This document shows positions 4,116-53,434 of a DNA stretch of 64,000 nt, piece by piece. The translations under genes and the position numbers were made by a program. Under the pieces are notes generated by a model that did not search any database, had not been told where the DNA came from, and worked only from the letters and a program-made list of their open reading frames with translations. The DNA comes from Chthonomonadales bacterium. Lineage in GTDB: Bacteria; Armatimonadota; Chthonomonadetes; Chthonomonadales; CAJBBX01. The DNA lies in the NCBI GenBank assembly GCA_037443035.1, contig JBBIPC010000005.1:71940-135939 (forward strand), in the 5' to 3' direction. The first letter of the stretch is position 1, and the number at the start of each line of letters is the position of its first letter.

Positions 4116-4997
4116 TCAGCGGTTCGGGCTCGCAGGACGAGGCGGCGCAAGCTTAGCTGCCGTCTCGCGGAACCACTGGACGCACTTTCGCACGTTCTCC
4201 ACCAGCTCTGCGCCGGAGGTCCGCTCGAACTCGATGGAGATCGGTCCTCGGAAGCCCTGAGCCTGCAGCTCGCGAAGCTGTGCTTCAGCATGGCCGACTC
4301 CCTGACCGAAGACCACGTCTTCCTTGTTCTCGTTCAGGTCCTTGAAGTGCAGCGAGACGACCCGTCCCTTGAGCTGCTTTAGACCCTCCACAGGATCGAT
4401 CCCTGAACGGTACCAGTGGCCCGTGTCCGCGCAGGAACCGATCGACTCGCTGACACCGCTGACGGCCTTGAGTACTGTCTCGGGACTCCAGTAATGGGAG
4501 GGCTTGGGGTGGTTGTGAATACCGATCTTGATGCCGTACTCCTTGCACAGCTTGTCCAGCATCGGCATGGCCTCCTCGGGCGGTTCCGAGGTGATGACGC
4601 GGATGCCCAGGGCTTTGGCGAAATCGAAGACCTTGCGCGCAGCCGCTTCGTCGTTTCCCAGGCCGACCACGCCATAGGCCACCGCCCGCACACGCGACGC
4701 TTGCAGCTTGGCCTTCACGGACTCGATGACCTCAGGAGAGGCGTTGTGATCGAAGCCGATGGGGTTCTCCTTGGAAAGCTTCTGACCGGGGAAGAACTCG
4801 ACGAACCGGATCCCGAGCTGGTTCAGCATGTCCAGCGTCTCGAAGACAGTCAGCTCGCGAAACGTCCATGCCTGACAGGCCAGTTGCCATCCCAGGCGCT
4901 GCTCGGGCGTTCGCTGGCGACGCTGTCCTGGCTGCGCCTGGCCGTAGGCGGCAGGCACTAGCACTGCAACAAGGGTGAGAATGGCGAGTGTGCGCAT
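4116..4997 (-). CDS. Secreted sugar phosphate isomerase/epimerase family TIM-barrel protein
   Basis: Signal peptide MRTLAILTLVAVL; motifs IHNH, DTGHW, HFKD, SIEFE. Confidence 0.85.
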   Translation of the reverse strand: MRTLAILTLVAVLVPAAYGQAQPGQRRQRTPEQRLGWQLACQAWTFRELTVFETLDMLNQLGIRFVEFFPGQKLSKENPIGFDHNASPEVIESVKAKLQASRVRAVAYGVVGLGNDEAAARKVFDFAKALGIRVITSEPPEEAMPMLDKLCKEYGIKIGIHNHPKPSHYWSPETVLKAVSGVSESIGSCADTGHWYRSGIDPVEGLKQLKGRVVSLHFKDLNENKEDVVFGQGVGHAEAQLRELQAQGFRGPISIEFERTSGAELVENVRKCVQWFRETAAKLAPPRPASPNR

Positions 4998-5120
4998 TGC
5001 TTTGCTCCTTTCTGGAGAAAGAAGAGTACAGCACAAGCAACGCTTACGTCAACCGGGGAGGAGTTGGATGTTTCGTCCGCTAACAGCCCGACGTCTCCCT
5101 GGCAAACGGATGCTGAAGGG

Positions 5121-5522
5121 TCACCGGTCGGTCTCTCGGGCTGGTTCACGGGCTTCTTGCACGAATCTGGCGAGGGAACCAGCCAGCTTCTCGAGTACGG
5201 CCAGCCAATCCTCGAGGTGTAGTCGTCCTGCGGGCGTGAGACGATACAAGTGCCGCGCAGGTCCTCTCCCCGTCACATCCCATTCGGAAGTCACAAAGCC
5301 GTTCGCCTCCAGCATGTGGAGCACACGGTAGAGAGCCGGCAAGTCCACGACCGAGTCGGTCAGAGCATGATCTTCCAGTGCTTTTCCGAGCTCGTAGCCG
5401 TGTGCCGCTCCCCGATCGCGCAGCAGTTGCAGCACTACCGGCTCGATGAACCGGTATAAGTTCCCCATGGCACAAGAACAGGGCTCTTCGCCACCGTGAC
5501 GACGGCATCTCCTTCGCTGCAT
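5121..5522 (-). CDS. PadR-family transcriptional regulator
   Basis: LQLLRDRGAAHGYEL...LYRVLHMLEANGFV...YRLTPAG winged HTH; start at 5522 after GGAGG. Confidence 0.9.
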   Translation of the reverse strand: MQRRRCRRHGGEEPCSCAMGNLYRFIEPVVLQLLRDRGAAHGYELGKALEDHALTDSVVDLPALYRVLHMLEANGFVTSEWDVTGRGPARHLYRLTPAGRLHLEDWLAVLEKLAGSLARFVQEAREPARETDR

Positions 5523-5632
5523 CGGACCTGGACCTCCGGTAGTGTTGGCCGGCGGCGGCATAGCTAGCAGTGACGCCTCCGGAAAAAAAGCAAGAAATCT
5601 CATGGAACATTGTAACATCTGCCAGCAGCTAT

Positions 5633-5668
5633 ATGTATAATACATGTAGACGCAACTAACATTGTCTA
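5633..5668. promoter_or_regulatory. Divergent promoter with candidate operator palindromes
   Basis: AT-rich intergenic region; ATGTAT-A-ATACAT (5633-5645) overlaps TATAAT (5636-5641); TAGAC-N12-GTCTA at 5647-5668. Confidence 0.45.
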
Positions 5669-5692
5669 GGCGGTGCGTAAAAGGAGCATGTC

Positions 5693-6052
5693 ATGAAGAT
5701 TGCAATCACGGCCAGCGGACATGAACCGACGAGTACTGTGGACGCCCGCTTTGGGAGAGCTGCCTACTTCATGGTGTACGACACCACGACGTCCACTTGG
5801 ACCGCAGTGCCGAACGCGCAGAATGCCGGCGCTCCCCAGGGAGCCGGAGTGCAGGCGGCGCAGTTGTTGGCCAGGGAGAAGGTCTCCGTCGTCATCAGCG
5901 GTCACTGTGGGCCTAAGGCGTTCCGAGCCCTTCAGGCGGGCGCCATAGAAGTGTACAGCGGTGCCAACGGAACAGTGGCGGAGGCTCTGGAGGCGTATCA
6001 GGCAGGGAAGCTGGTCCGACTGTCGGCACCAGATGTGCAAGGACATTGGTAG
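5693..6052 (+). CDS. NifB/NifX-family Fe-Mo cluster-binding protein
   Basis: MKIAI...VDARFGRAAYF...GAGVQAAQ...ISGHCGPKAF. Confidence 0.9.
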   Translation: MKIAITASGHEPTSTVDARFGRAAYFMVYDTTTSTWTAVPNAQNAGAPQGAGVQAAQLLAREKVSVVISGHCGPKAFRALQAGAIEVYSGANGTVAEALEAYQAGKLVRLSAPDVQGHW

Positions 6053-6107
6053 ACGTTAGGCGCTACCGCGAGACAAGCACTCGACGAGGTAAGAGGAGGT
6101 CAAGAGA

Positions 6108-6419
6108 ATGCCAGGAATGGATGGTAAGGGTCCCGCGGGGCAGGGGCCGATGACAGGTCGAGGATTGGGTCCATGCGGGCGAGGTCTCGCCCGAGGCCGC
6201 GCTCCGGCACGGGGTCTGGGTCTCGGTCGCGGCTGGGGACGCGGGCTGGGTTTCGGACTGGGGCTCGCACTCGGGTGGTGCCGGCGCGCCGCCTGGTGGG
6301 CTGGGACACCTGCCGAGGAACGCGAGGTCTTGAAGGCGCGACAGGAAGTCCTCGAGCGGCAACTCGAGCTGGTCAAGCAACAGCTAGCCGAAACTGAGAC
6401 CAAAGAAGAGCAGGCGTAA
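6108..6419 (+). CDS. DUF5320-like Gly/Arg-rich protein
   Basis: MPGMDGKGPAGQGPMTGRGLGPC, GR-rich middle, C-terminal coiled coil; typical companion of NifX-like operons. Confidence 0.8.
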   Translation: MPGMDGKGPAGQGPMTGRGLGPCGRGLARGRAPARGLGLGRGWGRGLGFGLGLALGWCRRAAWWAGTPAEEREVLKARQEVLERQLELVKQQLAETETKEEQA

Positions 6420-6425
6420 GCCCGC

Positions 6426-7280
6426 GTGAGGATCGGCGTCGCCAGTGGCAAAGGCGGAACGGGGAAGACGCTCCTTGCCACGAGCCTGGCCTACATCTTG
6501 GCCGAAGCCAGGCCGGTTCAGTACGTCGACTGCGACGTCGAAGAGCCGAACGGTCGGATTTTCCTGAAGCCGCGTATCACACGGTCTGAAGACGTCCGTG
6601 TGGACGTGCCGGTCATCGATGGAGAGGCATGTGCACTCTGCGGCGAGTGCGCCGAGTTCTGCCGGTTCGGAGCACTCGCCGCAATGGGCGAGAAGGTTCT
6701 GCTTTTCCCCGAGCTCTGCCACTCCTGCGGCGGGTGTGCGCTCGTCTGCCCGAACGATGCCATCCGAATGGGCCGTCGTAGTATCGGCAAGGTCGAGGTG
6801 GGACGATCGGGGAAGGTCGGTTTCGTCGAAGGGCGGCTGAACGTCGGCGAACCCATGGCGGCTCCGGTCATCTACGCGACGCTGGAGGCCGCGGACGAAG
6901 AGTCGCTCGTCATCGTGGATGCGCCGCCGGGTACATCCTGCGCGCTCATTGCCGCCATTCGAGCGTGTGACTACGTCTTGCTGGTCACGGAGCCCACGCC
7001 ATTCGGGCTACATGACCTGAGGCTGACGCTAGAGGTCGTCGCGGCTCTGGGGCTTCGCGCAGGGGTCGTGGTCAACCGAGAAGGGCTGGGCGACTTGGAG
7101 GTGGAGCCACTCTGCGCAGAGGCAGGCGTACCCATCCTGGCCAGGATCCCGTTCGACCGGCGGATCGCGGAAGTCTATGCAACGGGAGATAGCGTCACCG
7201 ATGCTCTGCCGGATGTTCGGTCCATCCTTAGCGACCTGGCCTGTGCGGTATTGCAGGAGAGCTCATGCCGGAACTCGTGA
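6426..7280 (+). CDS. MinD-superfamily P-loop ATPase with inserted ferredoxin domain
   Basis: SGKGGTGKT, DCDVEEPN, CALCGECAEFC, CHSCGGCALVCP, DAPPGTSC. Confidence 0.92.
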   Translation: MRIGVASGKGGTGKTLLATSLAYILAEARPVQYVDCDVEEPNGRIFLKPRITRSEDVRVDVPVIDGEACALCGECAEFCRFGALAAMGEKVLLFPELCHSCGGCALVCPNDAIRMGRRSIGKVEVGRSGKVGFVEGRLNVGEPMAAPVIYATLEAADEESLVIVDAPPGTSCALIAAIRACDYVLLVTEPTPFGLHDLRLTLEVVAALGLRAGVVVNREGLGDLEVEPLCAEAGVPILARIPFDRRIAEVYATGDSVTDALPDVRSILSDLACAVLQESSCRNS

Positions 7281-8179
7281 TACTGAGCGGCAAGGGCGGC
7301 ACGGGGAAGACCAGCGTCACTGCAGCATTCGCAGCGCTGGCCGTGCCTGTTACGTTGGCCGACTGCGATGTGGATGCCGCCGACTTGCACCTCGTGGCCG
7401 CGCCCGAGACAACCGAAACGCACGAGTTCCGATCGGGCTGGCACGCCGTCCTGGACCAGACTCTTTGTCGGCAATGTGGACGCTGCATCGCGTCGTGCCG
7501 GTTCGATGCAATCCACCGCGATAGGACGCGCTACCGCCAACTCCACATTGACCCGTTCGCCTGCGAAGGGTGCGGCGTGTGCGAGTTCGTCTGCCGCATG
7601 GGCGCCATCTCCATGGAGGAGCCGATTCGGGGATTCTGGTACCGATCCGTGACCCGGTTCGGACCCATGTTCCATGCCCAACTACACCCGGGCGCAGAAA
7701 ACTCCGGGAAGCTGGTGACCCTCCTGCGGCGGAAGGCCCGGCAAGCCGCCGAGCAGCCGAACGGTCTTCTCCTGACCGACGGGCCGCCGGGAGTGGGCTG
7801 CGCCGCCATCGCCACGCTTACGGGAGCGGATCACGTGCTCTTCGTTACGGAACCGACCGCAACCGGGCTACACGACCTGAAACGTGCGGAGAGATTGGCC
7901 GCTGGATTTCGTATCCCCGGCAGCGTCTTGATCAATAAAGCCGATCTCAGCCCGGAGATGAGCCGCTCCATTGCAGAGTATGCCGGCCAAGCGGGTCTTC
8001 ATCTCCTGGGAGAGGTGCCGTTCGATGCCGCGTTCGCCCGGGCGCAGGCCGCCGGCCAGACGATATTGGAATACGGTCGGAGTCCTGGAGCCGACGCGCT
8101 ACGAGTAGCATGGTCGCGGCTTCAGCGGCTGCTATCCGCCAAGACGCGCACACCGTTTCGAATTGTCAAGAATATGTAG
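7265..8179 (+). CDS. MinD-superfamily P-loop ATPase with inserted ferredoxin domain (second paralog)
   Basis: SGKGGTGKT, DCDVDAADL, CRQCGRCIASC, CEGCGVCEFVC, ENSGKLV, DGPPGVGC. Confidence 0.92.
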   Translation: MPELVILSGKGGTGKTSVTAAFAALAVPVTLADCDVDAADLHLVAAPETTETHEFRSGWHAVLDQTLCRQCGRCIASCRFDAIHRDRTRYRQLHIDPFACEGCGVCEFVCRMGAISMEEPIRGFWYRSVTRFGPMFHAQLHPGAENSGKLVTLLRRKARQAAEQPNGLLLTDGPPGVGCAAIATLTGADHVLFVTEPTATGLHDLKRAERLAAGFRIPGSVLINKADLSPEMSRSIAEYAGQAGLHLLGEVPFDAAFARAQAAGQTILEYGRSPGADALRVAWSRLQRLLSAKTRTPFRIVKNM

Positions 8180-8195
8180 TTCGAGGGAGCCATCC

Positions 8196-8534
8196 ATGAT
8201 CATCGCGATACCGCTCGTGGGAGACCGGTTGTCGGCCCACTTTGGTCATTGCGAGAAGTTCGCCCTCGTCCATGCCGATGGCGGCAAAGAGGGCGTTCTC
8301 AGGCTGGAGACTGTGACCCCACCGCCGCACGCACCGGGTGTCTTCCCGCAGTGGCTGGCCCAGTTGGGTGTACAGGTCGTGATCGTAGGCGGCATGGGCT
8401 CTCGGGCCCAGTCCCTCTTCGCCCAGCAAGGCATCACCGTCGTCACCGGTGCCCCCGTGGACACTCCGGAAGTTCTTGCGCAAGCCTACCTGAGCGGGTG
8501 TCTCCAGAGCGGAGAGAACGTCTGCGATCACTGA
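8196..8534 (+). CDS. NifB/NifX-family Fe-Mo cluster-binding protein
   Basis: LSAHFGHCEKF, PPPHAPG, GGMGSRA, C-terminal NVCDH. Confidence 0.9.
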   Translation: MIIAIPLVGDRLSAHFGHCEKFALVHADGGKEGVLRLETVTPPPHAPGVFPQWLAQLGVQVVIVGGMGSRAQSLFAQQGITVVTGAPVDTPEVLAQAYLSGCLQSGENVCDH

Positions 8535-8581
8535 CGAGGTGAGGGCCGCCGTAGCTACCCACTAGTCCCCCCAGCCTTCTG

Positions 8582-8629
8582 GATGCCCCCTGATCTCGCA
8601 GACTCGGTCGCGATGCGAGAGGGGGCATC
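8582..8629 (+). terminator. Stem-loop after the NifX operon
   Basis: GATGCCCCC...TCTCGCA / TGCGAGA-GGGGGCATC inverted repeat; no clear U-tract. Confidence 0.35.
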
Positions 8630-8694
8630 GTGTCGTGTGCCGACTAACAACAGAGGAGAAAGCAGTCCCCAGAGCAGCGAATGTGTGGATATAC

Positions 8695-8725
8695 TTGTAT
8701 AGATATTCACAACGTGTGGTAATAT
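8695..8725 (+). promoter_or_regulatory. Promoter of the cytochrome cluster with a Rex-like operator
   Basis: TTGTATA-GATA-TTCACAA (8695-8712) vs Rex consensus TTGTGAA-N4-TTCACAA, 2 mismatches; TG-G-TAATAT extended -10 at 8717-8725. Confidence 0.5.
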
Positions 8726-8804
8726 AGTGGACGATTGGTGGCGCCGGAGCAGTTGCTCCGCTTCGACGTCTGCCAGCTACATAGTGACGGAGGTAACGAG
8801 CACG

Positions 8805-9152
8805 GTGCAAGGACTATGGAAGCCTGCCATCAGCGTCGTCGTCCTGGTTCTCGGTGCGACAGCACTCGCCATGCCTGCGTACAAGGCGGTGTTGCACTCC
8901 ACCTACAAAGTGAAACCGGGCAGCGTCATCGCCAAGGCCGACTGCGCACTCTGCCACGCGACGAAGTCCAACTTCAAGAAGCTGAACGTGTTTGGCGCCG
9001 ACCTTGACAAGGCGCTCAAAGTGGCGAAGTCGAAGGCAATGACCGCGGAGATCCTCAAGAAAGTCGAGACACTTGACTCCGACAAGGACGGGGTGAAAAA
9101 CGTGGATGAAATACAGAAGGACACCCTGCCGGGAGATCCGAAGAGCAAGTAG
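8805..9152 (+). CDS. Small secreted monoheme cytochrome c
   Basis: GTG start after GGAGG; signal peptide; CALCH; Lys-rich; C-terminal DSDKDG...EI...PGDP. Confidence 0.85.
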   Translation: MQGLWKPAISVVVLVLGATALAMPAYKAVLHSTYKVKPGSVIAKADCALCHATKSNFKKLNVFGADLDKALKVAKSKAMTAEILKKVETLDSDKDGVKNVDEIQKDTLPGDPKSK

Positions 9153-9264
9153 CGAGCGGTAGCGGATGCCGTGCGAACCCTGACTACCTCGGCTTCCGCC
9201 GCCTACAGGCTGGAAGACCCAACACCCATGCGCTCGTTGCACGAGCGCAAGAAAGGACAAGAGC

Positions 9265-10467
9265 ATGCGGAGAACGCATAAGGCAATCGTCGCAGTCGCC
9301 ATTCTGTGTGGCTTCGTGGCCGCCGCGTCCAGCGCCTTGGCAGTACCCGCTTTCGGGCGCAAGACCGGCCTAGACTGCACTTCGTGCCACTTCGGTGGTT
9401 CGAATCGACTCACGAGAATGGGCCTGGATTTCCTCGTTCGCGGACATCGTATGAAGGATGATCAGGGCATTGCCAAGGGTGACAAGAGCCTGAACGTTCT
9501 GGACTACATGTCGTTCTCGTCCAAGGTTCGCTACACCGCGAACAACTCGTCACCGTACACGGCTTTCGACGTGGAGTCCTTCTCTATCTACACGGGCGGA
9601 CCTCTTTCCGGGGGTTTCAGCTACTTCGTGGAGTACTACCTCCATGAGCGGGGCAAGGCGGCGTCCTCGACTGGTGGTCAGGTGGACACAGCTACGAGGT
9701 CGAAGCTTGCGGACGCGTATCTCCAATGGAACAGCGCCCCTCAGGGAGATGCGTATTACTACGTTCGAGCGGGCCAGATCTACCCGTACGCCGTCTACGT
9801 CAATGGTTCTGGCGGTCGCCTGAGTATCAGTCGCCCGACAGTGATCGATGGTGATCTCGGGGGTGGCAACTTGTATACACCACGCGACCGTGCCTATGGC
9901 CTGTCGGCCGGCTACGCGAACGGTAATGGGTACCGTATGGAAGCAGGGATCGTCAACAGCGGCGGAACCAACAAGCGCGCCAACCTCGCGGAGCAGAATA
10001 CTTTCAAGGATCTTTTCCTCACCGTGGAGAAGGACCTGACGTCTGAGCTAACGTTCGGACTGTACGGCTACAACGGACGCATCAACATCCCGGCGGCGGG
10101 AAGCATCCCCCAGTGGGAGGATCGCTTCACTCGGTATGGCGTCTTCAGCCGTTACGAGACCGAGAGTCTCGCCTTGAGCGCCGCGTACTTCGGAGGCCAG
10201 AACCAGGTCTACGGCGGCGGACACAGGAATCCTGACGGGTACTATCTCGAAGCGGGATACAACGTCCAGCCAACCTTGACGGGATTCGCACGCTACGACC
10301 ACGTCTACAACGACCTGGGCGCCTCATCGCGGCGAACGGATGTCACGTTCGGCGTGTCCCAGAGGCTGACGGATGTGGGGCGACTGGTGCTGCAGTTCAG
10401 CACTACGACAGTACCAGGATCACCATACAAGCGACAGTTGCAGGCGGAGCTGAACTGGCTCTTCTAG
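9265..10467 (+). CDS. Cyc2-like fused monoheme cytochrome c / outer-membrane beta-barrel porin
   Basis: Signal peptide, then AVPAFGRKTGLDCTSCH...RLTRMGLDF (Cyc2-type N-terminus); alternating aromatic beta-strand pattern; C-terminal Phe (ELNWLF). Confidence 0.8.
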   Translation: MRRTHKAIVAVAILCGFVAAASSALAVPAFGRKTGLDCTSCHFGGSNRLTRMGLDFLVRGHRMKDDQGIAKGDKSLNVLDYMSFSSKVRYTANNSSPYTAFDVESFSIYTGGPLSGGFSYFVEYYLHERGKAASSTGGQVDTATRSKLADAYLQWNSAPQGDAYYYVRAGQIYPYAVYVNGSGGRLSISRPTVIDGDLGGGNLYTPRDRAYGLSAGYANGNGYRMEAGIVNSGGTNKRANLAEQNTFKDLFLTVEKDLTSELTFGLYGYNGRINIPAAGSIPQWEDRFTRYGVFSRYETESLALSAAYFGGQNQVYGGGHRNPDGYYLEAGYNVQPTLTGFARYDHVYNDLGASSRRTDVTFGVSQRLTDVGRLVLQFSTTTVPGSPYKRQLQAELNWLF

Positions 10468-10485
10468 GCACCGTACCGTTGTCTC

Positions 10486-10525
10486 GCTGCGGTGCTCCTC
10501 CCACGCCTAGGTGGAGCACCGCAGC
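10486..10525 (+). terminator. 13-bp perfect stem-loop downstream of the cytochrome-porin gene
   Basis: GCTGCGGTGCTCC...GGAGCACCGCAGC; no U-tract, so it could be a terminator or an mRNA stabiliser. Confidence 0.45.
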
Positions 10526-10708
10526 CTCATACGCAACAAGGGAAAGCACGATACAACGTCGCGAGACGATAGCTGCCAACCTCTGTGGCTACGACCTCCG
10601 TTGCCAGGCTGGGGACGTCGGATGCTTGGTGACCCGGGCGCGCCACCGAATGGCCCGTAGGCCCTGGGTACTGGCCACATCCATCGGCCAGCGGACCACG
10701 ATCTGAGG

Positions 10709-12202
10709 ATGAAGCTCCCACGTTCGTTCTACAACGTCACGACCTTCGTGGGAGCCCTCTTTGCGTTCCTGTTCCTCCTCGTTACGTTGTTCCTCTTCGC
10801 GGTGGAGCTGACCGCTCCGCAGTCCCATCCGTACATGGGGCTCGTCGCGTTCATCGTCCTTCCGACTCTTTTCGTCCTGAGTCTGCTTGTCGCGCTCTTC
10901 GGCATCTTCCGGACGTGGCGCCGGCTCCGAAAGCCGACAGCCACTCCCATCCCGCCGTTCCATTTCGATCTCAGTGTCCCGGCCCAACGTAACGCCGCTC
11001 TGCTCGTCATGGGAGGATCGGGGTTCTTCCTGCTGTTCGCCTCGTTCACGAGCTACCAAGCTTACGAGTACACCGATTCCGTCGAGTTCTGCGGAAGAGC
11101 CTGTCACGCGGTGATGAAGCCCGAATACACCGCCTACAAGGCTTCTCCCCACGCGAGGGTGGCCTGCGTGGCATGTCACATCGGCCCTGGAGCGACCTGG
11201 TTCGTCAAGTCCAAACTGAGTGGTACGTACCAGGTCTACTCCACACTCTTCCACAAGTACCACAAGCCCATCGAGACACCCATCGCCAACCTGCGTCCTG
11301 CTCGAGAGACCTGCGAGCAGTGCCACTGGCCCCAGCATTTCTACTCGGCCAAACTTCGCACGCAGGCCTACTTCCTGTCCGACGAGAAGAACACGCGCTC
11401 CAGCACGACGCTGCTGATGAAGATCGGCGGGGGTGATGTCAATCACGGAGCGGCGGCTGGCATCCATTTCCACATGTACCTGAACGCCACCATCTCCTAC
11501 GTAGCCCTGGACAAGAAGCGTCTGGTGATCCCCTACGTGGAGGTCCGGTACCCTGACGGTACTTTCAGATCGTATCGAAGCACAGAGAATCCCGTACCTG
11601 AAGACAAGCTGCGTAAGTCACCTCGCTACGTCGTAGACTGCATCGAGTGTCACAATCGACCGACCCACCGGTTCCGCCATCCGGCGCAGACCGTGAACCT
11701 GGCCATGTCTTTGAACAAGATCAAGCCGGACCTGCCAGAGATCAAGAAGGTAGCCGTGGAAGCCCTGGAACAGCCATACAAGACGGAGCCGGAGGCCCTC
11801 CGAGGCATTCGCAAGGCTGTACTGGACGCTTTCCGAGCGAACCATCCGGACGTGGCGGCCTCGCGTGGTGCCGACATCGAAGCGGCCATCGAGGAGCTGC
11901 AACGTATCTACCGCACGAATTACTTTCCGGAGATGAAGGTAAGCTGGAAGGAGTTCCCGGATCATATCGGCCATCTGTACTCTCCGGGCTGCTTCCGATG
12001 CCATGACGACAAGCATGTCAGCCCGGACGGCAAGGTCTTGTCACGCGCGTGCAATCAGTGCCACACGATACTGGCACAGACGGACGGCCAGGGCAAGATG
12101 TCCGAATCGCTCGAGGGGCTGGCCTTCAAGCACCCAGGCGATGTGGGAGATGCCTGGATGCAGATGAACTGCACAGACTGCCACGCGCAACCAGCACAAT
12201 AG
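10709..12202 (+). CDS. NapC/NirT-family membrane-anchored multiheme cytochrome c (7 heme motifs)
   Basis: Three N-terminal hydrophobic helices; YTDSVEFCGRACHAVM (CX3CH), CVACH, CEQCH, CIECH, CFRCH, CNQCH, CTDCH. Confidence 0.9.
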   Translation: MKLPRSFYNVTTFVGALFAFLFLLVTLFLFAVELTAPQSHPYMGLVAFIVLPTLFVLSLLVALFGIFRTWRRLRKPTATPIPPFHFDLSVPAQRNAALLVMGGSGFFLLFASFTSYQAYEYTDSVEFCGRACHAVMKPEYTAYKASPHARVACVACHIGPGATWFVKSKLSGTYQVYSTLFHKYHKPIETPIANLRPARETCEQCHWPQHFYSAKLRTQAYFLSDEKNTRSSTTLLMKIGGGDVNHGAAAGIHFHMYLNATISYVALDKKRLVIPYVEVRYPDGTFRSYRSTENPVPEDKLRKSPRYVVDCIECHNRPTHRFRHPAQTVNLAMSLNKIKPDLPEIKKVAVEALEQPYKTEPEALRGIRKAVLDAFRANHPDVAASRGADIEAAIEELQRIYRTNYFPEMKVSWKEFPDHIGHLYSPGCFRCHDDKHVSPDGKVLSRACNQCHTILAQTDGQGKMSESLEGLAFKHPGDVGDAWMQMNCTDCHAQPAQ

Positions 12203-12337
12203 CCACAGAGCGGGAGATCCAGCTCCCGCCACAAACAGGTGGACTGCGCAGTCGCGAAGCCGGACGAGGTCCCGGCCGCGACCTTGTAAGGCAATGTCCG
12301 CACGTGGATGCGGATTCACCGCGGGAGGTGAACAAGT

Positions 12338-12847
12338 ATGCCTGCACAGTCTACGAGGCCGCTGGACGACGAGAGGTCTGACGTTTCCGCAGCGGCCACG
12401 CAAGCCGGTCGCCGAAGCTTTCTCGAGTGGCTGCTGGCCACCTTGCTAGTCGTGACCGGCGCTACCTTTGTTCGTCCTGTGCTGTCCTATCTCAGTCCCC
12501 GAAAGAGCGGCAAGGGTGCCCACGTTCTGCTCGGTACTGACGGCCGCTCCATTCCGTATGCACGGCTAGCCACGGAGCCGACACTCGTCGGCATGGGCGT
12601 GGACGGGGAGCCTACGATTGTCGTGAGGTACGCCGGAGAAACAAGGGCATTCTCGGCGGTCTGCACACATCTGGGCTGCCTCGTCAAGTGGGAGGCGGCC
12701 AAGGCCGAGTTCATCTGCCCGTGCCACAACGGCCACTTCGACGCGAACGGTGTCAACGTTGCCGGGCCACCACCCAAACCGCTGAAACGCTTCAAGGTCT
12801 ACGCAACGGACAGGGGCGAAATCGGTCTCGAGGAGGTATCGGCATGA
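12338..12847 (+). CDS. qcrA: Rieske [2Fe-2S] subunit of a Rieske/cytochrome b complex
   Basis: Tat-like GRRSFL plus TM helix; CTHLGC and CPCHNG boxes; GPPPKPL. Confidence 0.92.
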   Translation: MPAQSTRPLDDERSDVSAAATQAGRRSFLEWLLATLLVVTGATFVRPVLSYLSPRKSGKGAHVLLGTDGRSIPYARLATEPTLVGMGVDGEPTIVVRYAGETRAFSAVCTHLGCLVKWEAAKAEFICPCHNGHFDANGVNVAGPPPKPLKRFKVYATDRGEIGLEEVSA

Positions 12848-13908
12848 AGCGCCTCGTTACCTCGGTGTGGCGATGGATAGATACACGCCTGAAGCTCAGC
12901 GATATCTTGCGGGCTACCCTAACCGAGTACATGGTGCCGGCGAACCTCAACTTCTGGCACACACTGGGCTTCGTTCTGGTGACCTGCTTCGTCATCCAGG
13001 TGGTCACCGGCATGCTCCTCCTGATGTACTACGTTCCGGACACCAGCCGAGCTTTCGAATCCGTCCAATACCTCAGCAATGAGGTGCCTTACGGGTGGCT
13101 CGTGCGGAACATCCACGCGATGACATCCCACCTGTTCGTGCTGGCGCTATTCCTCCATATCGCCTCCACCGTCTGGATGCGGGCCTACCGCAATCCGCGG
13201 GAGCTCCAGTGGCTTTCGGGGATGATCCTCCTGGGTCTAGTGCTAGCTGCCGGTCTGTCTGGCTACCTACTGCCGTGGAGCCAGCTCTCGTACTGGGCGA
13301 CAACCGTGGCGACCAACGCCGCAGGGAGCATTCCTGTCGTTGGTGATGATCTCGTGCTCTGGATTCGCGGAACGCCGAAGGTGACGCAGTTCACTCTCGG
13401 ACGATTCTTCGCGGCGCACGTCTCCATCATTCCGTTCAGCATTCTGGTCCTGATCGGCATCCACCTGCTGTTCCTTCGACTGACAGGTATCTCTGTCCCA
13501 GGGGGTGAGGAGAGGGGTCCGGTCCGCAGAGTGCCATTCTTCCCTCACATGGTGGTGAAGGAGATCGGTTCGGTCTTCGGATTCCTGATCCTTCTGAATG
13601 TCCTGATCTTCTACTTCCCGCAGATCAACTTCCCCGCGGACGCCCTCATTCCCGCTAATCCGCTCGAAACTCCCGCTCATATCAAACCGCACTGGTACTT
13701 CCTGGCTAACTACCAGTTCCTGAAGCTCGTGCCCAGCGAGTTTCTCGGTGTTATCCTCCAAGTCGTTGGAGGGATTATCCTTTTCTTCCTGCCATTCCTC
13801 GACACAGGTAAGCGACGGTCCCCGCTCTACAACCGGCTGTTCTACGCGGTGGTCGGTCTCAGCATCCTCGGTTACATCGGCCTGATGGTCTGGGGCTACT
13901 ACTCATGA
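12844..13908 (+). CDS. qcrB: Cytochrome b (fused b6 + subunit IV type)
   Basis: ATG overlaps the Rieske stop; GWLVRNIH...LH and FFAAH...IH heme ligands; GYLLPWSQLSYWA; ANPLETPAHIKPHWYF. Confidence 0.93.
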   Translation: MKRLVTSVWRWIDTRLKLSDILRATLTEYMVPANLNFWHTLGFVLVTCFVIQVVTGMLLLMYYVPDTSRAFESVQYLSNEVPYGWLVRNIHAMTSHLFVLALFLHIASTVWMRAYRNPRELQWLSGMILLGLVLAAGLSGYLLPWSQLSYWATTVATNAAGSIPVVGDDLVLWIRGTPKVTQFTLGRFFAAHVSIIPFSILVLIGIHLLFLRLTGISVPGGEERGPVRRVPFFPHMVVKEIGSVFGFLILLNVLIFYFPQINFPADALIPANPLETPAHIKPHWYFLANYQFLKLVPSEFLGVILQVVGGIILFFLPFLDTGKRRSPLYNRLFYAVVGLSILGYIGLMVWGYYS

Positions 13909-14726
13909 GGAGGTACGGGTTGATGATGCGCATTCTCGTTACAGCCCTGGCACTATCGGTGGTCGGGGGGGCGGCCCGGGGGCAGAACTCGTGTCTCGCC
14001 TGCCACCGACAGCAAGAGGGTGATCGTGGCGGTCCAGCCCATGACTGGCCGACAAGCGTGCACTTCGTGAACGGGATTGGTTGCCAGGATTGCCACGGCG
14101 GCGACGCCCGTTCCGACGACCCTCAGATCGCCATGAACCCCAAGAACGGCTTCGTCGGTCGGCCAGCTCCAAGGGACGTTCCCAACTTCTGTGGCAAGTG
14201 TCACGAAGCTGTTCGCGACAACTACCTGCAGAGCGCTCATGCAGCCATGCTCCAGGCTGACCCGGCAGCCGCGCCCAACTGCGTCACGTGCCACACCGCC
14301 CATAAACAGCAGAAGGTTACGCTGGACCTCATCAACGAGCGAACGTGCGGCCGGTGTCACGATTACGCACGGGCAGCGAGGCTCAAGGAAGCCATGCGCG
14401 GTATCGAGAACGATGTGCAAGCGGTGACTGCTCGCGAACGTCACGTGTTCCTCCACGGCATCGCCACAGACGACGAACAGAAGGCTATCTTTGCCGTCCG
14501 TAATCAGGCACACAGGCTTACCCACGTCCTGGAGATCCAGAGAATCCTCGGTGCATTGGACAAGGTACGGCCCGACCTGGATCGCGTAGAGGCGCGGATT
14601 TCGGTCAAGGAGAAGGTCCTGGAGGATAGACGGCGAGAAGGGAACGCTCTCCTCGTGCTCTTCTTCATCGGCATGATCGTCGCCTACGCTACGCACAAGA
14701 GGCTCATGCATACCGCCAGCGGTTGA
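13905..14726 (+). CDS. Pentaheme cytochrome c with C-terminal membrane anchor
   Basis: Signal peptide; CLACH, CQDCH, CGKCH, CVTCH, CGRCH; helical region, then C-terminal TM; start overlaps the cyt b stop. Confidence 0.88.
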   Translation: MRRYGLMMRILVTALALSVVGGAARGQNSCLACHRQQEGDRGGPAHDWPTSVHFVNGIGCQDCHGGDARSDDPQIAMNPKNGFVGRPAPRDVPNFCGKCHEAVRDNYLQSAHAAMLQADPAAAPNCVTCHTAHKQQKVTLDLINERTCGRCHDYARAARLKEAMRGIENDVQAVTARERHVFLHGIATDDEQKAIFAVRNQAHRLTHVLEIQRILGALDKVRPDLDRVEARISVKEKVLEDRRREGNALLVLFFIGMIVAYATHKRLMHTASG

Positions 14727-14740
14727 GGCACGAGTTGGAC

Positions 14741-14762
14741 TGGGGGCGTACGGATTCGAACC
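14741..14762 (-). other. tRNA 3'-end-like fragment (possible att remnant)
   Basis: Minus strand GG-TTCGAAT-CCGTA-CGCCCCC-A fits T-loop, 3' T-stem, acceptor strand and discriminator; no matching 5' half. Confidence 0.3.
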
Positions 14763-14767
14763 AACTC

Positions 14768-14797
14768 TTGACAGGCACTCCTTAGCCGTGCTATATA
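14768..14797 (+). promoter_or_regulatory. sigma70-type promoter
   Basis: TTGACA-18 nt-TATATA with TG extended -10, about 30 nt upstream of the next start. Confidence 0.6.
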
Positions 14798-14826
14798 TTT
14801 GTCACGTTCGTGGCAAGGGGAGTGCG

Positions 14827-15528
14827 GTGCATTCGATACGCGTGACATTGGCGGCAGCCCCGCTGGTGGCGCTTCTGCTATGGCCGTCGGCCGCCGCGGC
14901 CGATGTGCGTCACTTCCCCTACACCTACTCCTGGCACCAGCCGTACCGCAACGAGAAGGAGATCGCTTATCACCTGCGGTATCTAGATCGAGACAACACC
15001 TTCACCCATCGCTTCGAGTTCGAGTACGGCCTCACAGATCACCTGTCCGTAGCACCCTACGTCGTCTTCACTGGGAATACCGGCGGCGGCTGGACATACG
15101 ACGCAACGTTGCTAGAGACACGCTGGAACTTCGGAAGTCGCAAGGACGACGTCTGGTTGCCCGCAGTCTACATGGAGTGGAAGAAGGCCAGATCCGAGCC
15201 CTGGGAAGTGGAGGGCAAAATCATCATCACGCGCTATGGCACAGGCGAATCGGATCTCTCGCTCAACTACATTGTCGAGCAACTCCTGGAGACGGGAGCC
15301 AGTGCGCATCATGCGCTGTCTCTGGCGTACAGCAGAACCATCGGTGGCGGCATGCGGGCGGGATTCGAGTGGATTCAGGGTCTCACGTCTCGCAGGATCA
15401 ATGCGGGGCCTGTGTTCTCAAGCTACGTGGGACCAGTGTGGCTCACGGGAGGGCTGGCTCTGCCGCTGAACGGCGTTTCTGGCAATCGCCCCGAGTTCCG
15501 ACTCATCGCCTCCCACCACTGGTTCTGA
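14827..15528 (+). CDS. Putative outer-membrane beta-barrel protein
   Basis: Signal peptide ending AAA-D; aromatic alternating strands (FEFEYGLTDHLSVAPY); C-terminal WF. Confidence 0.65.
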   Translation: MHSIRVTLAAAPLVALLLWPSAAAADVRHFPYTYSWHQPYRNEKEIAYHLRYLDRDNTFTHRFEFEYGLTDHLSVAPYVVFTGNTGGGWTYDATLLETRWNFGSRKDDVWLPAVYMEWKKARSEPWEVEGKIIITRYGTGESDLSLNYIVEQLLETGASAHHALSLAYSRTIGGGMRAGFEWIQGLTSRRINAGPVFSSYVGPVWLTGGLALPLNGVSGNRPEFRLIASHHWF

Positions 15529-15558
15529 GCTGTCGGCAGGCACACGGTCAACGATGCC

Positions 15559-16197
15559 ATGACAGCAGTGGCGTCCGCTACAGGAGACGTACGGGCCGCT
15601 CGGCGGCTGGCCCTGTTCACCGTCGCCTGGAACCTGACCGAGGCGTTCGTGGCCTTGTTGAGCGGAATACTGGCTGGCAGCATCGCATTGGTCGGATTTG
15701 GCGCCGACTCCATAGTGGAGAGTCTATCCGGTGCGGTGATGCTCTGGCGTTTCGGGGCGACCGACCACGACGGCCGTCGAGAGAAGCTGGCCTTACGGTT
15801 GGTGGGAGCCACCTTGCTCATCCTCGCTGTGTACGTCGCAGGCGACGCAGCTCAGAGCCTCGCTCGCCGTGAGCCACCCGAGAAGAGCATCCCTGGCATC
15901 ATTCTCGCGATGCTATCGCTGGCCGTAATGCCTCTGCTCGCACGTGCCAAGCGAAGAGTGGCCGGCAGGCTACAGAGCGCCTCGTTACATGCCGACTCGC
16001 GGCAGACCGACATCTGCGCCGTGCTATCCGCCATCTTGCTTGTTGGACTGGCCCTAAATGCCATAGCTGGGTGGTGGTGGGCCGATCCTATGGCTGCGAT
16101 CGCTATGACGCCGCTCATCGCGCGTGAGGGAGTGAATGCCGTGCGCGGAGAAGCGTGCGGCTGTGCCGTGCAACATCCTACAGCGAAGTCAGACTGA
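15559..16197 (+). CDS. Short cation diffusion facilitator (CDF) family transporter
   Basis: WNLTEA...GSIALVGFGADSIVES, SLHADSRQT, WWWADP; about 6 TMs, no cytoplasmic CTD. Confidence 0.85.
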   Translation: MTAVASATGDVRAARRLALFTVAWNLTEAFVALLSGILAGSIALVGFGADSIVESLSGAVMLWRFGATDHDGRREKLALRLVGATLLILAVYVAGDAAQSLARREPPEKSIPGIILAMLSLAVMPLLARAKRRVAGRLQSASLHADSRQTDICAVLSAILLVGLALNAIAGWWWADPMAAIAMTPLIAREGVNAVRGEACGCAVQHPTAKSD

Positions 16198-17571
16198 CTC
16201 TCCTTGGTTCTCCATGGCGTCGCGGGCCATTCTCACTAGGTCCCGGGCTTCCGGCTCAGTCGGTGCTTCGGCAATGACGCGGATGATAGGCTCCGTGTTG
16301 GACGCCCGGGCCTGCAGCCACCGGTCGGGCCAGATCGCTTTGACGCCGTCGGTGAAGTCGAGCGTCGCGCCAACACAGGCAGCCTGAAGGCGACGCAGTG
16401 CAACGGGTACATCACGCGGACGCGCTGGCATCCGTTCCTTCAACATGGCGTACGCTGGAATCGCAGAACGCAGGTCACGGATCGTCGCGCGCTCCGTGGC
16501 CATGGCCTCCAGGATGTACCCCATGGCTACGAAACTGTCGCGGCACGGATTGATGTGGGGTGCTATGACGCCGCCGTTACCTTCACCACCGATACGCGCT
16601 CCTACCTCCAGCATCTTCTCTACGACATTGATCTCTCCAACCTTCGTGCGGTACAGCGTACAGCCTGTTTCTGAACAGACGTCGTCTATCATGCGGCTCG
16701 TGGAAACGTTGACCACAACCGGTCCAGGACTCCGCCGTGTCGCGTGCCGCACCGCCAGTGCCACGGTCACCTCCTCACCGAGCGGGATGCCGTTCTGGTC
16801 GGCGATGGCCAAGCGATCGGCGTCGGCATCCTGTACAAAGCCAACATCGGCTCCCGATTCCCGAACGGCCATGCCGAGATCCGTCATGTTCTCCGGTACG
16901 GGCTCTGGACTGTGGGGGAACGGCCTATCGGGGTCCGTGTGGATGGCCACAACCTTGCAGCCCAGACCTTCCAGGAAGGTTGGCGTTGCCCTGGACGCCG
17001 CTCCGTTGCAGCAGTCCACCGCAACGCGAATGCCGGCGCGACGAATGCTCTCCACATCCAGAGCCTGCCGGACGGCTTCCAGGTGACGCGGAATGGCCGA
17101 GCTATCGTGACGCACTTGCGGAACGGCCGCACCGCCGACGCGGGGATAGATACCCTGATGGTAGAGATCCGTGAGCTCGGCGGCTTCGTGAGGGCGGAGA
17201 AGGATGCCGTCCGGACCGAAGAACTTCAGAGCATTCCACTCGATAGGATTGTGACTGGCCGTGAGACAAATGCCGCCGAACGCCCCCATGCGCCGTACAT
17301 GTAGCTGCAACGCCGGCACGGGTAGGATGCCGACGTCCACCGGCGTACATCCCACGCTCTGAAGCCCGGCTATGACCGCGTACTCCACCATCTCCCGGGA
17401 TGGTCGGGTGTCCGTTCCCACAAGGATCGGCCCAGCGCCCGCATAGGCACCGAAAGCTGCGGCAAATGACGTCACGAGCTGTGGCGTCAGCGCATCGCCC
17501 ACGATGCCCCGCACACCAGAGATGCTGATCTTGAGTGCGAGCTGCTTGCGACGCAACAGGTTCGCAGCCAT
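16189..17571 (-). CDS. Alpha-D-phosphohexomutase (GlmM/PMM-like)
   Basis: SISGVRG, TASHNP, DADADR, GEGNGG, RASNTEP. Confidence 0.92.
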   Translation of the reverse strand: MAANLLRRKQLALKISISGVRGIVGDALTPQLVTSFAAAFGAYAGAGPILVGTDTRPSREMVEYAVIAGLQSVGCTPVDVGILPVPALQLHVRRMGAFGGICLTASHNPIEWNALKFFGPDGILLRPHEAAELTDLYHQGIYPRVGGAAVPQVRHDSSAIPRHLEAVRQALDVESIRRAGIRVAVDCCNGAASRATPTFLEGLGCKVVAIHTDPDRPFPHSPEPVPENMTDLGMAVRESGADVGFVQDADADRLAIADQNGIPLGEEVTVALAVRHATRRSPGPVVVNVSTSRMIDDVCSETGCTLYRTKVGEINVVEKMLEVGARIGGEGNGGVIAPHINPCRDSFVAMGYILEAMATERATIRDLRSAIPAYAMLKERMPARPRDVPVALRRLQAACVGATLDFTDGVKAIWPDRWLQARASNTEPIIRVIAEAPTEPEARDLVRMARDAMENQGESV

Positions 17572-17572
17572 C

Positions 17573-18949
17573 TCAGCGACCTCCGTGCCCCCAGGCAGCC
17601 CGCCGGGCGATCGTCACACACTCGTCGAAGAGCCGGTCGGCATCATCCGCGCTGGATGCTTCCAATATGATCCGCACCAGAGGCTCGGTGTTGGACGCGC
17701 GAACGTGCAACCATGCCTCGGGCCAATCGAATCGAACACCATCTGTAAGGTCGGGCCGGTCCTCGCGGAATCGTTCGCAGAAGCTGTCGAGGATTCGACG
17801 GACGCTAGTGGGCGGGCAGGGCAGCTCGGCCTTGCGCATATGGTACGCGGGCAGGTCCGCGGCCAGATCCGCAAGCGACCGTCCGCTCACCGATATGGCC
17901 TCCAGCACCGTGGCCAGAGAGAGCAGCGCATCGAATGTAGTCGTGTGCGGTAACGCAGCGACGCCTCCGTTTCCTTCTCCAGCCAGAGCGGCCGACTCCG
18001 TCAGAGCACGGTCCATGACATGGCCTTCGCCAACGCTCGTGCGAATGCATTCGCGGCCGTATTGTCGAGCAACGGCCTCCACCATGCGTGAGGTGGATAA
18101 GTTCGTGACGACCGGCCCCTCGCGCCGGGCCAGCACGTGCCGCGCCACAATCGGCAGGACACACTCTTCGGAAAGAGCCTCGCCGGCGTGTGTAACGAGA
18201 CCCAACCGGTCTCCATCCACGTTGATGGCGGCCCCAAGGTCGGCCTGCACGCTCCGAAGCAGGGCCGCGAGTTGCCGCATGTTCGCTGGTGAGGGAGCGG
18301 GCAAGTGGGCAAAGGAACCGTCCGCATCGTCGTTCAGTGGTATCACTTGGCAGCCAAGGGCGTCGAGGAATCGCTTGCCAAGTTCCGTCGCCGCCCCGTT
18401 GCAGAAGTCCACGGCGATACGAAGTCCTTTGCTGCGGATGGTAGCCGCGTCCACTGCGTCCAGTATGGATGCAACATACGCGTTCGAGGCCTCGGCGGTG
18501 ACATGGCGCTTGCCCAGGGCCTGCCATGGCGCCAGCGTAAACGCTGAGGCATGGTAGATGTCCAGCAGCTCCTCGGTGTTGGCAGCGTTGAGAAGCGCCC
18601 CATCCGGTCCTACGAACTTCAGGGCGTTCCAGCGTACGTCGTTATGGCTGCCTGTAATGGAGATGCCACCTGCGGCGCTCCGTGAGCGCACTGCGTGGCT
18701 TACGGCCGGAGTCGTGCACACACCCAGGTCCAGGACATCCGTACCGGTGCTGATGAGCGCCGAAAGAACCGCGGCATGGAGCATGCTCGAGCTGAGACGC
18801 GTGTCTCGCCCGATCACGACCTCACCGCCGCCGCAATACGTGCCGAAAGCGCTGGCGAAGTCCACCACCAGCTCGGGGGTCATCGCCTCGCCCACGACGC
18901 CTCGAACGCCCGAGACGCCGATCTTGAGTTGACGAAGTGCGAGATCCAT
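17573..18949 (-). CDS. Alpha-D-phosphohexomutase (GlmM/PMM-like), second tandem paralog
   Basis: GVSGVRG, TGSHND, NVDGDR, GEGNGG, RASNTEP. Confidence 0.9.
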   Translation of the reverse strand: MDLALRQLKIGVSGVRGVVGEAMTPELVVDFASAFGTYCGGGEVVIGRDTRLSSSMLHAAVLSALISTGTDVLDLGVCTTPAVSHAVRSRSAAGGISITGSHNDVRWNALKFVGPDGALLNAANTEELLDIYHASAFTLAPWQALGKRHVTAEASNAYVASILDAVDAATIRSKGLRIAVDFCNGAATELGKRFLDALGCQVIPLNDDADGSFAHLPAPSPANMRQLAALLRSVQADLGAAINVDGDRLGLVTHAGEALSEECVLPIVARHVLARREGPVVTNLSTSRMVEAVARQYGRECIRTSVGEGHVMDRALTESAALAGEGNGGVAALPHTTTFDALLSLATVLEAISVSGRSLADLAADLPAYHMRKAELPCPPTSVRRILDSFCERFREDRPDLTDGVRFDWPEAWLHVRASNTEPLVRIILEASSADDADRLFDECVTIARRAAWGHGGR

Positions 18950-39610: not shown

Positions 39611-39696
39611 ATCGCGGGAGGACGGCGACACCCGCGGCGAGAAGTCAATCAGTGCAGTATCGCACCCATGCGAATGCAGGAGGTCGTCCCTGCGCA

Positions 39697-53403: not shown

Positions 53404-53434
53404 CGGGCGCACCGTTAAGGAGGATTGCAGGGCC

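Follow-up and report, generated by a model that had tools for sequence, protein, structure and literature searches.

A haem-porin, an ImcH-family cytochrome and a Rieske/cytochrome b complex in one gene island of a Chthonomonadales bacterium: a candidate electron exit from quinol to the cell surface

Closest described systems and the gene block

The closest published analogue of the locus considered here is the extHIJKLMNOPQS cluster of Geobacter sulfurreducens, which encodes the porin-like ExtI (weakly similar to phosphate porins), c-type cytochromes, the Rieske protein ExtO, the cytochrome b ExtP and the subunit-IV-like ExtQ, and which experiments have linked to the reduction of selenite and tellurite (PMC5877670). 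The same kinds of component are encoded in an accessory island of a Chthonomonadales bacterium (phylum Armatimonadota), within a stretch of 64,000 nucleotides (nt) of contig JBBIPC010000005.1 (assembly GCA_037443035.1, positions 71,940 to 135,939, forward strand; herein the window). The island differs from the Ext cluster in that its porin has its own haem and an ImcH gene is included in the cluster, and in that it lacks the rhodanese, the selenoprotein and the 10- or 12-haem cytochrome. An earlier note on this DNA, made from the sequence alone, treated this exact arrangement as not known to be described; in outline that is superseded, clusters of a porin, cytochromes and Rieske/cytochrome b having already been published for Geobacter (extHIJKLMNOPQS; PMC5877670). 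We read the island as an exit by which electrons leave menaquinol for the cell surface through two quinol oxidases working in parallel; this reading, drawn from the sequences, is tentative, and we give it a little less than an even chance.

The six genes named in that note are all present within 8805-14726 of the window, where they form a tightly packed, co-directional block on the + strand (TM, transmembrane; aa, amino acids):

g1, 8805..9152, + strand: small secreted monohaem cytochrome c; signal-like N terminus, one CALCH, DSDKDG-type C-terminal part
g2, 9265..10467, + strand: fused cytochrome-porin, 400 aa; signal-like N terminus, CTSCH at residues 38-42, 16-strand β-barrel
g3, 10709..12202, + strand: ImcH-family inner-membrane heptahaem cytochrome, 497 aa; 3 TM helices, one CX3CH, six CXXCH
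g4, 12338..12847, + strand: Rieske 2Fe-2S subunit; one TM helix, RRSFL motif resembling that of twin-arginine translocation (Tat) signals
g5, 12844..13908, + strand: cytochrome b, 7 TM helices, with a fused subunit-IV-like C-terminal domain
g6, 13905..14726, + strand: pentahaem cytochrome c; N-terminal signal, five CXXCH, C-terminal TM anchor

Family assignments were made with Pfam and NCBIfam. The start/stop overlaps that had been claimed are there, g4/g5 and g5/g6 each overlapping by 4 nt, and gaps of 112, 241 and 135 nt separate g1/g2, g2/g3 and g3/g4. The c-haem motifs sum to the 14 counted before (1 + 1 + 7 + 5, the CX3CH of g3 included). In a crude six-frame scan, 11 open frames with at least four CXXCH motifs were found in the whole 3.76-Mb genome, 2 of them inside the block.

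In the electron path that we propose, menaquinol would be oxidised in parallel by g3, electroneutrally by analogy with Geobacter ImcH, and by the Rieske/cytochrome b complex, which with the anchored pentahaem g6 as its c-subunit would run a proton-motive Q-cycle. Both g3 and the g6-containing complex would reduce the periplasmic monohaem cytochrome g1; from g1 electrons would pass to the one haem of the outer-membrane protein g2, and a dissolved high-potential acceptor in or at the g2 pore, for example chelated Fe(III), would take the electron. The argument for a conduit is one of gene neighbourhood; we infer the exchange of electrons among the block proteins, their sequence in the path, flow towards the outside, the identity of the acceptor and the use of menaquinone. 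Menaquinone is the quinone of cultured Armatimonadota.

Parts of this path have described counterparts. The g2 protein resembles Cyc2 and Cyt572 in its signal peptide, one near-N-terminal CXXCH, 16-strand OprO/OprP-like porin and length of about 400 aa (PMC8406198, PMC7029218, PMC13741234), whereas its host is a heterotroph and its neighbours are ImcH and Rieske/cytochrome b genes, not those of Cyc1, rusticyanin or an oxidase. Likewise, g3 resembles ImcH (GSU3259) of Geobacter sulfurreducens in its size, three TM helices, CX3CH plus six CXXCH motifs and NapC/NirT-like region; Geobacter imcH is monocistronic (PMC4251993), whereas g3 and the ImcH genes at 16 of 80 metagenome loci (the best 80 of 595 confirmed, within the available flanks) stand beside a Rieske/cytochrome b operon. 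The Pcc/Mtr conduits, working with CbcL, ImcH or CymA, share with the island a quinol oxidase, a periplasmic cytochrome and a haem-bearing barrel (PMC6295460, PMC5877670), but in them the barrel is a separate protein threaded by multihaem cytochromes, and solids are within their reach, whereas the island has one haem fused to a 16-strand porin. The published iron-oxidiser model also combines a haem-porin with a Rieske/cytochrome b complex in one organism; its hosts are autotrophs, and the account of it does not report the genes as one cluster with ImcH (PMC7029218). The 12 phyla that the table of the 2018 ImcH survey lists do not include Armatimonadota (PMC6295460).

Literature searches, whose coverage stopped short of supplementary tables, returned no description of ImcH beside a Rieske/cytochrome b operon, or of a Cyc2-type porin with both; as far as these searches reach, the ImcH-Rieske-cytochrome b-multihaem cassette is undescribed. 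The Acidithiobacillus rus/petI operon is a further comparison for the iron-oxidiser model. In metagenomes, Cyc2-type genes serve widely as a marker of iron oxidisers and ImcH genes as one of metal reducers, and the locus carries both; since both stand in one sugar-degrading Armatimonadota bacterium, at least one of the two marker readings needs care. Were the proposed outlet real, an iron-oxidation marker gene would here act as an electron outlet. With only six proteins, the system is also small enough to be reconstructed in a laboratory host, where one could follow which way electrons pass through a porin with a single haem.

The six encoded proteins

The N terminus of g2, judged from a hydropathy window and by eye, is signal-like: a hydrophobic segment (residues 7-25) is followed by SSALA/VPAF, and the sole CXXCH, CTSCH at residues 38-42, comes directly after the signal peptide. 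C38, C41 and H42 are invariant in 30/30 aligned homologues (30 of the 45 matches from a word-indexed search), and the mature N terminus is conserved in the family as A-[VI]-P-A-[WF]-x-R-...-C-x-x-C-H. An AlphaFold2 model (mean predicted local distance difference test, pLDDT, 85.5) has 16 long strands between residues 82 and 399, and its top Foldseek matches are 16-strand general porins (PorB, E 5.7e-12; OprP 2o4v_A, 8.1e-10; OprO 4rjw, 2.6e-9, and 4rjx, ~2.5e-9). Keffer et al. define Cyc2 by a signal peptide, a lone CXXCH, a 16-strand OprO/OprP-like porin and a length of at least 365 aa (PMC8406198). At 400 aa, g2 is above the FeGenie Cyc2 rule of at least 365 aa and, on the evidence of its model, has the Cyc2 architecture. 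The term "Cyc2-like" in the earlier note is therefore apt for the architecture; membership of the Cyc2 family and iron oxidation, which the term might also convey, are not established.

The sequence relatives of g2 are largely anonymous. Neither Pfam nor NCBIfam holds a family match for it, and a PDB sequence search with the g2 family profile returned only antibody chains and one weak multihaem cytochrome match (E 0.0019-0.8). The 45 matches of the word-indexed search are mostly unnamed or from Armatimonadota, with Porin_O_P in 2/45; the profile of 30 members reaches 4358 cluster representatives at E ≤ 1e-3 and 941 at 1e-10, and in the protein atlas the family corresponds to unnamed clusters and one cluster with Porin_O_P in 20% of its members. 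Cluster look-ups for 20 distant members, from metagenome-assembled Gamma- and Deltaproteobacteria and Brocadiaceae, gave "hypothetical protein" throughout and no known iron oxidiser. Named relatives of both g2 and g3 are Armatimonadota (Chthonomonadaceae, Fimbriimonadaceae, Fimbriimonadia). Kato et al. place Cyc2 of cluster 3 in metagenome-assembled Armatimonadota genome(s) (PMC9671151); the function of cluster-3 homologues is the most uncertain according to the Cyc2 authors themselves (PMC8406198).

The small cytochrome g1 is predicted to be a periplasmic electron carrier. Among 33 genome loci with a g2 homologue, a g1-like gene adjoins the haem-porin gene at three from Fimbriimonadales (L003, L005 and L009), and it does so twice in G022, a genome described below. 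At two of these loci (L005, 6531-7532; L009, 11195-12292) the haem-porin gene is followed by one for a monohaem cytochrome c fused to a DUF2231 membrane domain, which may be a different inner-membrane partner of the haem-porin in Fimbriimonadales.

The description of g3 in the earlier note as a NapC-type heptahaem protein was right about the seven haem motifs and the three TM helices; the protein is, however, not a generic NapC/NirT cytochrome but specifically one of the ImcH family. Hydrophobic helices at residues 14-32, 45-63 and 96-114 precede CGRACH (CX3CH) at 128 and CXXCH at 153, 202, 311, 428, 448 and 488, and NapC/NirT homology covers residues 106-186 (PF03264, E 1.1e-8), with a match to NrfH (2j7a_C) over residues 98-229 (E 7.9e-6). 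All seven haem motifs are invariant in 22/22 aligned homologues; because these and the g2 motif are invariant, the haem motifs of the block are not chance occurrences. ImcH proteins are described as having 495-519 aa, three N-terminal helices, a CX3CH beside the membrane domain, six CX2CH motifs and NapC/NirT similarity around helix 3 (PMC6295460, PMC4251993), and by its sequence g3 has every one of these hallmarks that was tested.

In Geothrix fermentans DSM 14018 one open frame of 505 aa, and no other, matches g3 (42% identity, E 1e-115). This species is listed as an ImcH carrier (PMC6295460, PMC4251993), and the match is an ImcH homologue by indirect identification, the papers naming the organism and not the locus; its 42% falls inside the 31.5-49% identity reported between Geobacter and other ImcH homologues (PMC6295460). 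The family of g3 comprises at least 7999 clusters at E ≤ 1e-3, the best 120 being 51-80% identical to it. Purified Geobacter ImcH is reported to dehydrogenate menaquinol electroneutrally, to pass the electrons to a periplasmic cytochrome and to be redox-active from -350 to -150 mV (bioRxiv 10.1101/2023.05.03.539133), and by analogy g3 is predicted to be a menaquinol dehydrogenase.

The last three genes encode a Rieske/cytochrome b/pentahaem set. g4 matches the Pfam Rieske family (E 4.7e-12) and, below the cut-off, the NCBIfam b6f-type iron-sulfur subunit (E 7e-25), and both cluster-binding boxes, CTHLGC and CPCH, are present in its translation. g5 matches PF00033 (E 1.6e-56) and PF00032; its haem ligand pairs, H91/H105 and H192/H207, are invariant in 6/6 aligned sequences and enclose 13 and 14 residues, the b6-type spacing. 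A CxGG motif in helix A marks the binding of haem cn (PMC5600118); no such cysteine was found in g5, which reads HTLGF there and has no cysteine. The topology of g6 is c1-type (signal, haem domain, C-terminal anchor), its gene is translationally overlapped with g5, and on these features g6 is predicted to be the c-subunit of the complex. Compared with the Ext proteins, the N-terminal half of g5 is matched by ExtP (E 1.6e-56; 191.4 bits, cut-off 290), and g6 scores 24.4 bits against ExtS (cut-off 100); as g5 stays under the ExtP equivalog cut-off, we regard the set as an Ext analogue and not a member.

g5 is the only PF00033 match in the genome, and its complex hence the genome's only Rieske/cytochrome b. 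A housekeeping bc1 complex was considered for this set and down-weighted, since cytochrome b occurs in 19/68 genomes of the order and is missing from the same-genus genome, and since an alternative complex III stands beside the genome's oxidase.

Conservation of the island and recurrence of its modules

Comparison with another genome of the genus (G016, 96% complete) defines the limits of the island. There, about 200 nt of a single contig separate a TIM-barrel gene from the phosphoglucomutase genes, whereas their counterparts in the window are at 4162-4877 and 16241-18931, so that window positions ~5040-16190 (11.1 kb) are an insertion/deletion. Neither g2, g6 nor cytochrome b was found in G016, and the block has thus been gained or lost as part of one 11.1-kb event. 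At 0.60, the GC content of the island is within the 0.60-0.65 of the window outside it and gives no signal of recent transfer. Near-identical DNA occurs in sediment or subsurface habitats. Of the five DNA sequencing runs listed for the stretch, three contain part of it and two are connected to it through the same study only; no RNA run was among those listed.

The idea in the earlier note that the genes form one functional unit is supported: the block moves as one island and the set is kept together in another genus of the same family (G022), this being the sole further case of the full six-gene arrangement among the genomes searched. The flanks of the G022 locus differ from those of the window, and the set lies on one strand in the order g1-like, Usp, haem-porin, ferredoxin-like, second g1-like, CbcL-like, ImcH-like, Rieske, cytochrome b, pentahaem. 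Identities to the block are 60% (ImcH-like), 69% (Rieske), 79% (cytochrome b) and 60% (pentahaem); the haem-porin matches the g2-family profile at E 3e-41, and the CbcL-like gene encodes a multihaem-cytochrome b561 fusion with ~13 CXXCH motifs, read by eye. In a further genome, G075, the Rieske/cytochrome b/pentahaem triad (49% identity), ImcH (57%) and haem-porins are on different contigs.

Across a sample of 301 Armatimonadota genomes, the window's own included, the haem-porin profile matches 41 and ImcH 9; g6 has a strong match in 3 (again counting the window's own) and a match at E ≤ 1e-10 in 6. All three genomes with a strong g6 match also have ImcH and the haem-porin (hypergeometric P 1.9e-5, or 6e-4 without the window's genome), and 4 of the 9 ImcH genomes have a haem-porin where 1.2 would be expected, P values and expectations that overstate the association because related genomes are not independent.

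Pairs of the modules also meet in unrelated phyla. An ImcH-like gene stands at the haem-porin gene in L017 (Lindowbacteria, 44% identity) and in L003 (Fimbriimonadales, 35%), the latter with CbcL-like and NrfCD-like genes, and in L031 (Elusimicrobia) a haem-porin accompanies a Rieske/cytochrome b set in a run of tetrahaem, haem-porin, Rieske, cytochrome b6, subunit IV-dihaem fusion, FeoB and DtxR-FeoA genes. A crude scan finds some open frame with CXXCH within 4 kb of the haem-porin gene at 20/33 loci.

The inner-membrane half recurs by itself. The 80 metagenome ImcH loci hold a Rieske gene at 16, cytochrome b at 15 and a g6-like multihaem stretch at 26; among the 26 loci having at least 2.5 kb on both sides, 9 have the Rieske gene, and at 11 of the 16 Rieske-bearing loci its start lies 25-212 nt downstream of ImcH. 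ImcH, Rieske, cytochrome b and a multihaem cytochrome, in that order, are thus a recurrent cassette. L064 and L085 extend it to CbcL-like, ImcH, Rieske, cytochrome b, 11-haem, 4-haem, a ~450-aa protein, 12-/14-haem and 6-/7-haem genes. The ~450-aa protein has no Pfam match and ends in Phe, and the last genes of these loci are a candidate porin-plus-multihaem conduit; a type IX secretion system (T9SS) sorting domain in L064 suggests a host of Bacteroidota or Ignavibacteria type. L092 has the ImcH-Rieske cassette plus FeoB and FeoA genes, and L078 has it beside molybdopterin oxidoreductase, Fer4_11 and nitrate-reductase-delta-type chaperone genes. No Rieske gene was found within the 1.5-kb flanks of the Geothrix ImcH loci.

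The cassette suggests that electroneutral and proton-pumping quinol oxidases are regularly paired to serve acceptors in the periplasm or outside the cell, a point that matters for how energy yield is matched to the potential of the acceptor. It is conceivable, though we think it doubtful, that ImcH and the Rieske/cytochrome b-multihaem complex are one conserved unit with two quinol sites, possibly a supercomplex, that diverse heterotrophs would join to interchangeable outer-membrane exits and that in Armatimonadota would use the Cyc2-type haem-porin as its outlet.

CbcL-like genes adjoin ImcH in G022, L003, L064 and L092, and the genome of the window has one elsewhere (six CXXCH plus cytochrome b561; contig C7, 25620-27578). 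With the potential-dependent use of ImcH and CbcL in Geobacter (PMC4251993, PMC6295460), this would suit a bidirectional or potential-sensing valve, in which the quinone modules alternate according to the outside potential, as Geobacter ImcH, CbcL and CbcBA do, and electrons either leave or enter. Nothing in the sequence bears on regulation or reversibility, and we consider such a valve improbable.

Ferrous-iron genes stand beside the modules at three unrelated loci: FeoB and Fur in L010 (4385-8930), FeoB and DtxR-FeoA in L031 (13708-16389), and FeoB and FeoA in L092 (12208-14621).

Direction of electron flow and neighbouring genes

Several observations weigh against the proposed exit. Fe(II) oxidation is the only activity demonstrated for fused cytochrome-porins (PMC8406198, PMC7029218, PMC13741234), and the Pfam, NCBIfam, PDB and protein-atlas searches above gave no sequence link of g2 to a characterised Cyc2. 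Solid Fe(III) oxides are out of reach of a single haem inside a pore, which means that outward flow would have to end on a dissolved acceptor. In g5 and G022 the Qo motif is PHWY, where G075 and three metagenome homologues have PEWY. The gaps of 112-241 nt between g1, g2, g3 and g4 bear on whether there is a single transcript, and scans of the region for promoters and terminators did no better than chance (3 promoter-like sites, with 2.6 expected from shuffles, and 10 terminator-like sites, with 6.4 expected); none of the + strand terminator-like sites lies between genes. Among the genomes searched, one alone shares the complete arrangement, and two of its genes are each interrupted by one in-frame stop, which may reflect recent decay, strain variation or assembly error, and which may mean that the module is dispensable or decaying:

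L057 (G022:C15), 9126-10640, - strand: ImcH-like gene with an in-frame TGA, frame otherwise intact
L057 (G022:C15), 14634-15971, - strand: haem-porin gene with an in-frame TAA, frame otherwise intact

Finally, an ImcH-like gene is present at 2 and Rieske/cytochrome b at 1 of the 33 haem-porin loci, from which it follows that the outer- and inner-membrane parts are loosely coupled overall, and no g1 or g2 homologue was found in the flanks of any of the 80 metagenome ImcH loci.

Such loose coupling is what would be expected if there were no trans-outer-membrane conduit at all. ImcH and the Rieske/cytochrome b-pentahaem set would then be an extra, complex-III-like quinol:cytochrome c module feeding the aerobic oxidase or periplasmic reductases, for example the two octahaem cytochromes (PF13447) encoded elsewhere in the genome, and the haem-porin, the small barrel g7 and the CDF transporter g8 (both below) would be mere neighbours serving iron or metal uptake and homeostasis. 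The separate contigs of triad, ImcH and haem-porins in G075, the molybdopterin oxidoreductase, Fer4_11 and chaperone genes beside the L078 cassette, and Fur, FeoB and DtxR genes beside haem-porin or cassette genes at three loci all fit this alternative. Yet the window and G022 keep all parts together despite different flanks, ImcH-like genes are next to haem-porins in L017 and L003, and in L031 the haem-porin is directly 5' of Rieske/cytochrome b; moreover, the alternative complex III already adjoins the oxidase, and a haem bound covalently in the pore makes little sense unless something in the periplasm exchanges electrons with it. Taken together, these points make a conduit-free module quite unlikely in our view.

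The genome itself (3.76 Mb in 61 contigs, 100% complete by marker genes) informs the direction of flow through the proposed exit. It has many glycoside hydrolase and sugar-metabolism genes, and one haem-copper oxidase beside genes for alternative complex III and haem A/O synthase; no large subunit of ribulose-1,5-bisphosphate carboxylase/oxygenase (RuBisCO) was found, other routes of CO2 fixation not having been searched. The sugar-degrading heterotroph of the earlier note is therefore recognisable in the glycoside hydrolases and the missing RuBisCO large subunit; the genome is nonetheless not cytochrome-poor. It has cytochrome c maturation genes (two PF01578 matches) and, besides the octahaem cytochromes, two neighbouring open frames at the end of a contig, one with 8 and one with 9 CXXCH. 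Multihaem loci of this genome (G000), in addition to that on C7, are:

C14, 93763-95157: octahaem cytochrome (PF13447)
C30, 24934-26478: octahaem cytochrome (PF13447)
C3, 220888-225165: the two neighbouring open frames with 8 and 9 CXXCH

We favour outward flow because the host is an organotroph with no RuBisCO large subunit found, because an alternative complex III and an oxidase are already in the genome, because ImcH is known as a quinol oxidase only, and because the same cassette sits elsewhere with modules of metal-reducer type.

The foremost rival has electrons entering: g2 would oxidise Fe(II) and pass electrons through g1 to the terminal oxidase, and the Rieske/cytochrome b complex, perhaps with ImcH, would run in reverse into quinone. 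Its attraction lies in the Cyc2 architecture of g2, in the published model in which Cyc2 feeds a periplasmic cytochrome and then an oxidase or a reversed complex III (PMC7029218), in the genes annotated as cluster-3 Cyc2 in metagenome Armatimonadota genomes (PMC9671151), in the haem-copper oxidase of this genome, and in the metal genes near the modules (FeoB, Fur, DtxR-FeoA and FeoA in L010, L031 and L092, and the CDF exporter that ends the island). The cluster-3 type is, however, the one whose function the Cyc2 authors call most uncertain (PMC8406198), and ImcH homologues have been reported in Fe(III) reducers only and implicated so far in quinol oxidation only (PMC6295460). In relatives, the ImcH-Rieske-cytochrome b cassette keeps company with CbcL-like and candidate conduit genes typical of metal reducers. 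The RuBisCO large subunit was not found in a genome that is 100% complete (within the limits of that search given above), and it is not obvious why a heterotroph would need to drive electrons backwards into quinone. Inward Fe(II) oxidation is, on balance, unlikely.

The remaining features of the island and its immediate surroundings are:

PadR-family regulator, 5130..5540, - strand: Pfam PadR E 1e-15; left edge of the island, inside the stretch missing in G016, divergent to the five-gene cluster
Five-gene cluster, 5693..8534, + strand: NifX-like, DUF5320, two MinD/ParA-type ATPases with 4Fe-4S domains, NifX-like (Pfam)
Sigma-70-like promoter match, 8700..8728, + strand: in the 270-nt gap 5' of g1; 9/12 hexamer positions, a weak match given 3 matches against 2.6 expected
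g7, 14788..15528, + strand: small predicted outer-membrane barrel with 12 strands, its family nearly orphan; AlphaFold2 mean pLDDT 66
g8, 15559..16197, + strand: cation-diffusion-facilitator (CDF) metal efflux transporter, closing the island; matches to Pfam Cation_efflux (E 1.6e-12) and, below cut-off, to the NCBIfam CDF superfamily (E 5e-16)

The NifX-like/MinD-Fer4 cluster was considered as a part of the system and set aside: it lies in the same island, yet tblastn found none of its five genes at the G022 locus. The g7 model resembles FapF, KdgM, NanC, a COG4313 channel and PcoB in Foldseek, and on this basis g7 may be a metal or solute channel. A search of 5.8 billion proteins found only 2 homologues of g7, and a relative with 28% identity lies near the haem-porin of a Saganbacteria genome (L010, 7707-8477). 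Farther along, the window contains a 1561-aa open frame at 53222-57907, without a Pfam match, and one of 1640 aa at 38989-43911 with a weak DUF6259 match only.

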